The translations under genes were made by a program, and so were the position numbers. Positions 13,517 to 26,220 of a DNA stretch of 39,467 nt are shown here, one piece after another. The number at the start of each line of letters is the position of its first letter. Position 1 is the first letter of the stretch. The notes below the pieces were generated by a model. It was not told the DNA's origin. It did no database searches and saw only the letters and a program-made list of their open reading frames with translations. This DNA is from Candidatus Woesearchaeota archaeon (GTDB lineage: Archaea > Nanobdellota > Nanobdellia > SCGC-AAA011-G17 > JAGVZF01): contig JACPNH010000019.1 of assembly GCA_016185565.1 (NCBI GenBank), positions 1-39,467 on the forward strand. The letters run 5' to 3'.

Positions 13517-13685
13517 GAAAAATTAACTTCGGGAAATAAGGTTTGCGTGTTTAATACAAAATTTGGGAAAATTGGATTATAAAGAAGAAAAGATGTTTAT
13601 TCAGGAAGTAGATACTGCTATTTTAAAAGATACTGAAAAATTATATAAGATTAGAAGTGATTTGAAAAGTAGAGTTTTATACTGA
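13517..13685 (+). pseudogene. Middle and C-terminal relics of a carbon-nitrogen hydrolase gene
   Basis: 13517-13582 reads EKLTSGNKVCVFNTKFGKIGL*, the segment that precedes the catalytic ICxD in nitrilases. 13581-13685, in another frame, reads KEEKMFIQEVDTAILKDTEKLYKIRSDLKSRVLY*, resembling a nitrilase C-terminus. Confidence 0.7.
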
Positions 13686-13791
13686 GTTAAATCTTAAAAC
13701 TATCAAATTGAGAATATATTAGCTCCCTTTAACGCAACAATGCATAATATTAGAAACCTTTTTAAAGAATTTTCTATCCAAGTTCAGATAG

Positions 13792-13877
13792 GCCCCGGTA
13801 GCTCAATCTGGTAGAGCTCACGGCTGTTACTACTAGCTGAAACCGTGTGGTTGAGGGTTCAAATCCCTCCTGGGGCG
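13792..13877 (+). tRNA. tRNA-Asn(GTT) with a 12-nt intron at 37/38 (13830-13841)
   Basis: Acceptor GCCCCGG/CTGGGGC+G, anticodon stem CACGG/CCGTG, CT-GTT-A, T-loop TTCAAAT; C32 pairs with the antepenultimate intron G. Confidence 0.92.
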
Positions 13878-13886
13878 CATTTTTTC

Positions 13887-13900
13887 AAAAACTTTATAAA
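13887..13900 (+). promoter_or_regulatory. BRE/TATA promoter of tRNA-Ile
   Basis: AAAAAC-TTTATAAA ends 26 nt upstream of G13926. Confidence 0.65.
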
Positions 13901-13925
13901 GATTCTTTAATGGAAATTTTTCGAT

Positions 13926-14163
13926 GGGCTCGATGGTTAAGCTCAGTAGTGGAAGTTTAACGACTGCTAAAGCTCGTAGCTTAGACAAAGTTTAAACTTT
14001 GGAGCAACCTGGCTAGAGCACTCGTCAGCTTTGCTAAAAAGTTGGGTGAAACTGATAGGTTGAGCAACTTCTCATTTCCACGGAGGTGAGATATAAGAGC
14101 GATGCTCTTCTGTTGCAAGACTCACAAATCGAGAGGTCGCCGGTTCAAATCCGGTCGGGCCCA
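13926..14163 (+). tRNA. tRNA-Ile(GAT) with four introns (7/8: 13933-13976; 15/16: 13985-14007; 30/31: 14025-14050; 37/38: 14058-14127)
   Basis: Joining exons of 7+8+17+7+36 nt gives a 75-nt cloverleaf: GGGCTCG TA GCTT AGCCTGGCT AGAGC A CTCGA CT GAT AA TCGAG AGGTC GCCGG TTCAAAT CCGGT CGGGCCC A. Each junction has a BHB-like central helix. Confidence 0.85.
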
Positions 14164-14171
14164 CATTTAAA

Positions 14172-14507
14172 ATGAACTATTTGTTTGTGTGTACATATAA
14201 TGTAAATAGAAGTGTTGTAGCTGCTGAAGCGTTTAAAGAATTGTTAAAGAAACATGGAATAAATGGGCAAGTTAAGCATGCTGGTGTTTCTGAACTTGCA
14301 AAGAACAGAATCTCTAAAGAGCTAATAGAATGGGCTGACAAGATTTTTGTGATGGAAAACTTTCATAAAGATTTTATTTTAAAAATAGCGCCCGAAGCAA
14401 GGAATAAGATAGAAGTTTTAGGTATAGAAGATTTATATGGAGTAAATGACCCTTATTTATTAAAAATATTAAAAGAAAAATTACAAAAGGAATTAAAAGA
14501 TGAATAA
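14172..14507 (+). CDS. Low-molecular-weight protein-tyrosine phosphatase/ArsC-like protein
   Basis: LFVCTYNVNRS P-loop (CX5R) and EWADKIFVME. Confidence 0.9.
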   Translation: MNYLFVCTYNVNRSVVAAEAFKELLKKHGINGQVKHAGVSELAKNRISKELIEWADKIFVMENFHKDFILKIAPEARNKIEVLGIEDLYGVNDPYLLKILKEKLQKELKDE

Positions 14508-18723: not shown

Positions 18724-18827
18724 TGGGCCCGGGCAGATTCGAACTGCCGACCTCCACCTTGTAAGGGTGGCGTCATTTGCGGGTTTCTTATTTTTAATTA
18801 TTAAACTAACCGCTAGACTACGAGCCC
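18724..18827 (-). tRNA. tRNA-Val(TAC) with a 31-nt D-loop intron (18777-18807)
   Basis: Mature sequence GGGCTCG TA GTCT AGCGGTT^ATGAC G CCACC CT TAC AA GGTGG AGGTC GGCAG TTCGAAT CTGCC CGGGCCC A; BHB with central helix GCGG/CCGC and bulges TTA/AAA. Confidence 0.93.
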
Positions 18828-26104: not shown

Positions 26105-26220
26105 CGCCGGAACTGGGATTTGAACCCAGATCTCCGTTAGGAGCCAGCTACCTAGTATTCTTTCCAGGTTCACCTTTCTTTAAAGAAAACTGGTGCCATA
26201 CCAGGTTAGGCGATTCCGGC
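26105..26220 (-). tRNA. tRNA-Ser(GGA) with two introns (30/31: 26169-26189; 37/38: 26150-26161)
   Basis: GCCGGAA/TTCCGGC+G73, CCAG^C CT GGA A^A GCTGG, long variable arm CTCC-TAAC-GGAG; BHB central helices CACC/GGTG and CTGG/CTAG. Confidence 0.92.

Follow-up and report, generated by a model that had tools for sequence, protein, structure and literature searches.

A tRNA-Ile(GAU) gene of a Woesearchaeota-type archaeon with four putative protein-spliced introns

A tRNA-Ile(GAU) gene in five exons

The stretch of DNA considered here (the window) is a 39,467-nucleotide (nt) contig of Candidatus Woesearchaeota archaeon (JACPNH010000019.1 in assembly GCA_016185565.1), which corresponds to contig C9 of a 0.80-Mb, 53-contig assembly (G000) that is 84% complete. 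Positions 13926 to 14163 of its plus strand probably hold a functional gene for the isoleucine transfer RNA (tRNA) with anticodon GAU, belonging to a Woesearchaeota-type (DPANN) archaeon and interrupted by four introns of the protein-spliced kind. As judged from the letters and from comparison with relatives, this is very probably a real tRNA-Ile(GAU) gene, in which four endonuclease-type introns would lie at exactly the boundaries drawn in a preliminary description of the locus. Although the system as such is of a known kind, the gene has more introns than the published ceiling for a tRNA gene allows.

The architecture of the gene is summarized by the tRNA positions that each exon supplies. 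Exon 1 (13926..13932, + strand, 7 nt) provides positions 1-7, the 5′ strand of the acceptor stem, and pairs at 7/7 positions with 14156-14162; it is separated by the 44-nt intron 1 (13933..13976, +), at site 7/8, from exon 2 (13977..13984, +, 8 nt). The latter contributes positions 8-15, comprising U8, A9, the 5′ strand of the D stem, which pairs with 14017-14020, and the start of the D loop. Intron 2 (13985..14007, +, 23 nt) follows at site 15/16. Exon 3 (14008..14024, +, 17 nt) carries positions 16-30, including the D loop, the 3′ strand of the D stem, A26 and nucleotides 27-30 of the anticodon stem, and ends at intron 3 (14025..14050, +, 26 nt, site 30/31). Positions 31-37, with A31, the GAU-containing anticodon loop and A37, are confined to exon 4 (14051..14057, +, 7 nt). 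Intron 4 (14058..14127, +, 70 nt) occupies the canonical 37/38 site and hosts a conserved three-helix RNA, and exon 5 (14128..14163, +, 36 nt) completes the molecule with positions 38-73, that is, the 3′ side of the anticodon stem, the variable loop, the T arm, the 3′ acceptor strand and the discriminator A.

Once the introns are removed (163 of 238 nt), the five joined exons form a 75-nt product that ARAGORN calls tRNA-Ile(gat) and in which all four stems pair, so that the splicing pattern put forward in the preliminary description was recovered in full, together with its three very short exons, which measure 7, 8 and 7 nt. Three G-U pairs are present in the spliced product (U5-G68, U13-G22 and G49-U65), and no CCA is encoded at the 3′ end of the gene. 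Exon 2 has the commonest sequence found among orthologues at positions 8-15, and the last 30 nt of exon 5 are identical in the orthologue of a genome from the same genus (G001). With a GC content of 0.60, the exons exceed both the introns (0.42) and the window (0.32).

It had been anticipated that standard tRNA finders would overlook such a gene, and this was borne out for the two used here. The unspliced locus receives no call from ARAGORN with the intron search on or off, and it gives no match to RF00005, the tRNA model of Rfam, either at the gathering threshold (29 bits) or at E≤10; above threshold, the model matches only 26 places in the whole assembly. A split or circularly permuted tRNA gene is ruled out, as the five exons are colinear on the plus strand, within 238 nt, with one promoter box upstream.

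This TATA-like promoter box (TTTATAAA, 13893..13900, + strand) ends 25 nt before exon 1. A spacing of roughly this size from the gene start is usual for archaeal TATA boxes. A comparable box is found no more than 45 nt upstream in 34 of the 50 orthologous genes examined, and in 29 of these 34 the distance from the end of the box to position 1 is 24-27 nt, most often 25. Because the spacing equals the mode of the orthologues, exon 1 is taken to lie at the normal 5′ end of the gene. Likewise, the CTGATA located 87 nt upstream of the T arm of this gene is the only one in the genome at a tRNA-compatible spacing, and two further T-arm matches, with CTGATA 137 and 315 nt upstream, belong to other tRNAs. 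The preliminary description had raised the question of another tRNA-Ile(GAU) in the same genome; the scan for CTGATA combined with a T arm found no second candidate with a GAU anticodon in the 84%-complete assembly.

Orthologous genes and intron turnover

Of all the evidence for the introns, the comparison with orthologues carries the most weight. The survey covers 55 distinct orthologous tRNA-Ile(GAU) genes, a non-random set of loci fetched by three different criteria. Introns were counted with an own spliced aligner followed by hand curation, and the site numbers given for relatives are approximate. False 5′ introns placed by the aligner in eight loci (L023, L029, L031, L032, L039, L050, L060 and L066), as well as the mis-spliced L017, were corrected by eye, and the gene of G023, which fell below the score cut-off, was assigned two introns by eye. 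For three genomes of the same family (G002, G005 and G006), the tRNA-Ile(GAU) gene was not located.

After curation, many of the genes are intronless (e.g., L013 and L021-L049), 7 carry three introns and 3 carry four. The number of introns per orthologue in this Woesearchaeota-type order therefore ranges from 0 to 4, and the order as a whole makes use of about eleven insertion sites. Such a spread in one orthologous gene, seen across 240 genomes, points to rapid intron turnover, in which tRNA-Ile(GAU) would repeatedly gain and lose introns. The three genes with four introns are the locus described here (L001), L066 in G083, with introns at about 19/20, 27/28, 37/38 and 43/44, and L177 in G118, with introns at about 19/20, 27/28, 37/38 and a T-loop site. 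All three are ARAGORN-valid tRNA-Ile(gat) genes once spliced computationally. Since the genes of G083 and G118 also carry four introns, the four-intron state is real and recurrent in the order, and the locus of G000 is not unique. The initial view of the gene as an extreme case thus holds in that the published three-intron maximum is exceeded, but not in the sense of a one-off.

Introns 2, 3 and 4 each find counterparts at identical junctions and with matching 3′ ends. The only intron of the gene in G004 (L012) lies at 15/16 and has the same ...GAGCAA end as intron 2. Introns at 30/31 with a GGTGA-type end, mostly GGTGAA, occur in G001, G003, G019, G021, G008, G036, G075 and G125, and a 37/38 intron is present in most of the intron-bearing genes. 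In addition, the D-stem pair 12-23, which spans intron 2, is U-A in G000 and A-U in the same-genus G001, which constitutes a compensatory change.

Introns in the acceptor stem are also present elsewhere in the order: the tRNA-Ile(GAU) gene of G093 (L060, minus strand) contains a 22-nt intron of this kind at 3/4, for which a central helix CAAG/CUUG, formed with the 5′ leader, was recognized by eye; the script-drawn boundary scored 1/4. As a separate observation, three loci (L067 in G074, L068 in G020 and L059 in G116) have 44-48-nt insertions in the D loop and 31-32-nt insertions near positions 42-44, with poor splice-motif scores. These may be nested introns or the result of wrongly placed boundaries.

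Splice motifs and the status of intron 1

In the standard bulge-helix-bulge geometry, a helix of 4 base pairs (bp) is flanked by two 3-nt bulges, and the cut falls after the second bulge nucleotide. The junction helices previously assigned to the four introns were reproduced, with 4/4 central pairs at 7/8, 15/16 and 30/31 and 3/4 at 37/38. The motif of intron 3 is strict, combining the central helix CACU/GGUG with an outer helix of 2 bp and an inner helix of 7 bp. Intron 2 has the central helix GCUU/GAGC and an inner helix of 7 bp, with no outer helix. At intron 4, the inner helix comprises 3+5 bp and the outer helix is the anticodon stem itself, which is complete only after intron 3 has been removed; genes that have no intron 3 show an outer helix of 5 bp at their 37/38 motif.

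Folding calculations were made for each of these introns singly and for the full precursor. Forcing the motifs of introns 2, 3 and 4 costs 0.0, 3.6 and 0.8 kcal/mol, respectively, when they are taken singly, and 2.0, 0.0 and 2.5 kcal/mol in the full precursor. The motif fold of intron 2, taken singly, equals the minimum-energy fold, and the motif of intron 3 is part of the most stable fold of the whole precursor. For introns 2, 3 and 4, the motif thus coincides with the minimum-energy fold or lies close to it; cleavage of intron 1 would need a fold that is transient or captured by the enzyme. Introns 2 to 4 are consequently regarded as secure, and the bulge-helix-bulge assignment of intron 1 as doubtful.

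The motif proposed for intron 1 consists of a GGCU/AGCU central helix with the bulges CG|A and CG|U. Exon 1 and intron 1 share a GCTCG at their ends, a repeat that renders the boundary formally ambiguous from 2/3 to 7/8. Registers 2/3 to 6/7 were rejected, as they give at most 2/4 central pairs and 7/8 alone gives 4/4. It was also considered whether an internal AAGCUCG might be the true 5′ acceptor strand, and this was rejected on account of two mismatches at the top of the stem, as seen by eye. Intron 1 contains a D-arm-like stretch. From these features, intron 1 would appear to have arisen by local duplication: the GCTCG repeat would supply the two identical bulges and the self-complementary AGCU the central helix. 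If so, the repeat and the AGCU suggest that a splice motif can originate de novo through local duplication.

Several observations weigh against a functional gene with four introns, and most of them concern intron 1. Its central helix is flanked by an outer helix of 0 bp and an inner helix of 1 bp. Forcing the motif in the precursor costs +17.5 kcal/mol, because it competes with the acceptor stem, and even in nascent transcripts, where the 3′ strand is absent, the cost remains at 7 to 12 kcal/mol. None of the orthologues among the genes surveyed shares intron 1, and a degenerate 7/8-intron pattern, searched over metagenome contigs, matched nothing but ordinary tRNAs preceded by a chance upstream heptamer (16/16 matches). 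To these are added the central helix of intron 4, which has 3/4 pairs; the splicing endonuclease EndA of this genome, in which alignment to the Methanocaldococcus jannaschii enzyme reveals no evident insertion of the kind that the literature ties to relaxed specificity; and the completeness of 84%, which means that a second, intact tRNA-Ile(GAU) gene could sit in the missing part of the genome.

It could accordingly be argued that the gene was recently disabled, that is, that a tRNA-Ile(GAU) with three introns was broken by an unspliceable 44-nt insertion or local tandem duplication between positions 7 and 8, and that the working copy lies in the unassembled 16%. The high folding cost and unpaired flanks of the intron 1 motif, its absence from orthologues and the incomplete assembly all agree with such a history, and the direct repeat and the D-arm-like stretch are what a partial duplication would leave. 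This explanation is nonetheless considered unlikely. Every stem of the product is intact; exon 1 still pairs over its whole length with the 3′ strand and keeps the exact promoter spacing, and no second candidate was found in the assembly. The acceptor-stem intron of G093 mentioned above, whose central helix is 4/4 by eye and 1/4 at the script-drawn boundary, also speaks against it. Moreover, exon 1, intron 1 and exon 2 are spanned (13925-13979) by a low-depth 151-nt contig of a variant strain (run X3, one of four DNA runs described below), which departs from the locus by 3 differences and a single-nucleotide deletion at 13962. At least one diverged strain thus carries intron 1 too, and the insertion has persisted through some divergence.

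A second possibility accepts introns 2 to 4 as ordinary and supposes that the cell excises or tolerates the 44-nt 7/8 element in another way, either by a different nuclease-ligase path or through sites within the repeated GCTCG. The formal ambiguity of the boundary leaves room for it, and in the minimum-energy fold of the nascent transcript the two cut sites face each other across a single helix instead of occupying a bulge-helix-bulge. However, a 4-bp helix between two 3-nt bulges arises in the 7/8 register alone, and we know of no alternative removal route for archaeal tRNA introns, which makes this proposal very improbable.

Splice alignment and assembly support

The match to tRNA-Ile is better than chance would give. 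The query used, positions 1-37 of the intronless orthologue L013 of G016, is independent of the locus and comes from a gene that scores 70 bits on RF00005. Splice-aligned to 13890-14127, it reaches a score of 42, to be compared with a mean of 5.8 and a standard deviation of 4.4 over 1499 random windows of G000, in which no score was above 22, and with a maximum of 26 in 500 shuffles. The complete spliced product is identical to L013 at 67/75 positions, and 4 of the 8 differences make up two compensating stem pairs, as determined by eye. On the assembly side, contigs obtained from four public DNA runs of a groundwater study show zero differences across the locus, with coverage of 13600-14163 in X1 and X3, 13750-14162 in X2 and 13750-14156 in X4; three of these four runs may be the source sample. 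A chance mosaic or assembly chimera, in which a real 3′ half of a tRNA would stand behind unrelated sequence with matching short words, might be suspected from exons of 7 to 8 nt and from free intron placement, which inflates matches, but the alignment scores, the run contigs and the promoter spacing already contradict it, as do junctions common to orthologues, and its probability is negligible.

Splicing enzymes and proposed maturation

The assembly contains one EndA gene, on contig C44, which encodes a protein of 184 amino acids with matches to PF01974 (95 bits) and PF02778 (64 bits). Its best relatives of solved structure are the alpha (catalytic) subunit of Nanoarchaeum equitans (5.5e-41) and the homotetramer of M. 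jannaschii (7.4e-35), to which residues 19-184 align free of gaps, and its closest relatives are recorded from Woesearchaeota and Nanoarchaeota. By length and domain content, EndA is predicted to be of the homotetramer type. The combination of a single small EndA, devoid of an evident specificity insert, with a 7/8 junction far from the canonical motif offers a test case for homotetramer-type cleavage. The ligase RtcB (PF01139) is also encoded, with a match of 473 bits. This match (contig C11:19256-20431, minus strand) covers profile positions 47-426 and lies inside an uninterrupted open frame of 898 amino acids, about twice the usual length, which could reflect an intein or a fusion.

From the genes present, we infer the following course of transcription, cleavage, ligation and splicing order. 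The gene would be transcribed from its own TATA-type promoter into a precursor of about 240 nt. The single 184-residue EndA would then cut in both 3-nt bulges of the bulge-helix-bulge motif at each intron, and RtcB would join the exons into the 75-nt tRNA. Because the anticodon stem is interrupted until intron 3 leaves, intron 3 would be removed before intron 4; its excision would allow the stem to form and thereby to supply the intron 4 motif with its outer helix.

The RNA inside intron 4

Intron 4 can be read as containing a functional RNA that would be released by EndA and that is usually hosted by the tRNA-Ile(GAU) intron. A 20-nt core of this intron, allowing up to 3 mismatches, was found in 15 of the 240 genomes of the order, and the reversed control pattern in 2. 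Eight of the matches lie in the 37/38 intron of tRNA-Ile(GAU), 2 are free-standing (G159 and G092) and 5 are due to chance; these five, L155-L158 and L164, were discarded, as they are unrelated, apparently coding sequence that the covariance model does not match. This model, R2, matches 14056-14127 with 74.6 bits and recovers all true copies plus five more intron-hosted ones (G046, G089, G118, G075 and G036). Within the order, 14 of 151 genomes contain a match to it; among 150 genomes sampled from the class, mostly outside the order, G000 gave the only one. Altogether, 13 genomes of the order carry the RNA inside the intron and 2 as a free-standing copy, and the relatives of the intron 4 RNA are the loci L151-L154, L159, L160, L162, L163, L165 and L175-L179. 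The free-standing copies of G159 and G092 each have their own TATA-like box and bulge-helix-bulge-like flanks. In G092, the copy follows an intronless Asn-Ile(GAU) pair downstream, at a distance of about 480 nt and one gene.

The three helices of the RNA are paired to 94% in 15 sequences, compared with 48-59% when the partners are slid. In nine pairs both partners have changed, and a covariation score as high as the observed one was reached by 0 of 500 shuffles; these figures are to be read with the fact that the 15-sequence alignment was fitted to the model and so favours the structure. The 3′ strand of hairpin A (GGAGGUGAG) is unchanged in 11 of the 15 copies, and the four lowest-scoring matches differ from it at one or two places. 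Its partner strand varies in those 11 copies only by G-U to G-C changes. The second hairpin covaries, and the closing stem doubles as the inner helix of the splice motif.

An Rfam scan of 13700-14400 at E≤10 produced no match inside 14058-14127, and inspection by eye showed the RNA to have neither box C/D or H/ACA features nor a conserved junction core like that of small ribozymes. A small open frame through hairpin B was rejected, since its ATG is missing in G024 and G032. The purine strand resembles a Shine-Dalgarno sequence, but a role of this kind, through complementarity to the 16S 3′ end, was likewise set aside; the assembly has no 16S gene.

In Euryarchaeota, the 37/38 intron of tRNA-Trp hosts a box C/D small RNA that is released by EndA. 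The two cases are alike in that a small RNA resides inside the canonical intron of one particular tRNA. They differ in that the intron 4 RNA lacks an Rfam match and visible C/D motifs, and in that it is a three-helix junction, with one invariant hairpin strand, which also occurs free-standing with splice-motif flanks. The conserved RNA may accordingly be a new endonuclease-processed non-coding RNA. A wider proposal, for and against which the odds seem about even, is that the canonical tRNA-Ile(GAU) intron in this order is the gene for a three-way-junction RNA of about 60 to 90 nt, released by EndA, probably as a circle, and able to survive intron loss as a free-standing cassette with its own promoter and bulge-helix-bulge flanks, thus defining a new RNA family of this kind. 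If this were true, the tRNA-Ile gene, with its many insertion sites and up to four introns, would represent a natural system in which to follow the origin and movement of introns and their gain of function.

Comparison with known systems

The preliminary description took three introns as the usual ceiling, in agreement with the consulted portions of the tRNAscan-SE 2.0 paper, where three is the maximum per tRNA gene. The tRNA-Ile of G000 and those of two relatives exceed this ceiling, with exons down to 7 nt. Among the literature matches listed, from a coverage that ends short of subscription journals and supplementary files, there was no relevant report of tRNAs with four or five introns or of tRNA introns in Woesearchaeota.

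The nearest parallel is found in the Thermoproteales (Pyrobaculum, Thermofilum), whose tRNA genes, according to the same portions of the tRNAscan-SE 2.0 paper, carry several short protein-spliced introns at canonical and non-canonical sites with bulge-helix-bulge flanks. There too, introns are rapidly gained and lost among relatives, and one intron may have to be removed before the motif of the next one forms. Apart from the maximum of three introns given there, compared with four in G000, the Thermoproteales differ in being hyperthermophilic crenarchaea with a two-subunit EndA, whereas G000 is a small-genome DPANN host from groundwater with a single 184-residue EndA of predicted homotetramer type.

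A similar arrangement has been described in the red alga Cyanidioschyzon merolae, in which, as far as the available part of the paper reports (PMC3728597), nuclear tRNAs, including tRNA-Ile, have up to three introns at D-arm, 37/38 and T-loop sites. The ordered removal of bulge-helix-bulge introns was shown there by reverse transcription polymerase chain reaction (RT-PCR). This organism is a eukaryote, its maximum is three introns and some of its genes are circularly permuted, whereas the exons of G000 are colinear.

Closest to the present host is the work of Kaneta et al. 2018 (PMC5829648), which, in the sections consulted, predicted the tRNAs of one Woesearchaeota and one Pacearchaeota genome and inferred from their incomplete sets the existence of 'unidentified disrupted tRNA genes'. 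The locus of G000 is one such hidden disrupted gene; a four-intron gene is not described in the main text of that study, as far as it was available. The same text ties a homotetramer-type EndA with an 'L3' loop to increased gene disruption. Because neither ARAGORN nor the Rfam tRNA model detects genes of this sort, DPANN genomes that contain them would be scored as lacking an essential tRNA, which distorts completeness estimates and inferences about host dependence.

Neighbouring tRNA genes

The tRNA-Ile gene is preceded, at a distance of 48 nt, by a gene for tRNA-Asn(GUU) with a canonical intron (13792-13877, + strand). The RF00005 alignment shows its GUU anticodon followed by a 13-nt insertion in the anticodon loop, and the label Ser(act) given by ARAGORN was rejected on this basis. 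The Asn-Ile tandem recurs in G024 and G092.

Further tRNA genes of 100-127 nt are located in the window at 18724-18827 (-) and 26105-26220 (-) and on contigs C3, C12, C18, C39, C41, C42, C52, C5, C8 and C22. They carry one to three introns at non-canonical sites, where the anticodon calls of ARAGORN are unreliable. Read by eye, contig C3 holds a tRNA-Phe(GAA) with three introns and contig C12 a tRNA-Lys(UUU) with a 30/31 intron ending in GGTGAT. Several other tRNAs of G000 thus have two or three introns, again as judged by eye, and the heavy intron load is therefore a property of the genome. A BLAST search of the four introns against G000 gave significant matches only to themselves, and introns 1, 3 and 4 have no paralogue in the assembly. 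Intron 2 resembles in position and end, by visual inspection only, the 15/16 intron of the tRNA-Phe(GAA) on contig C3.

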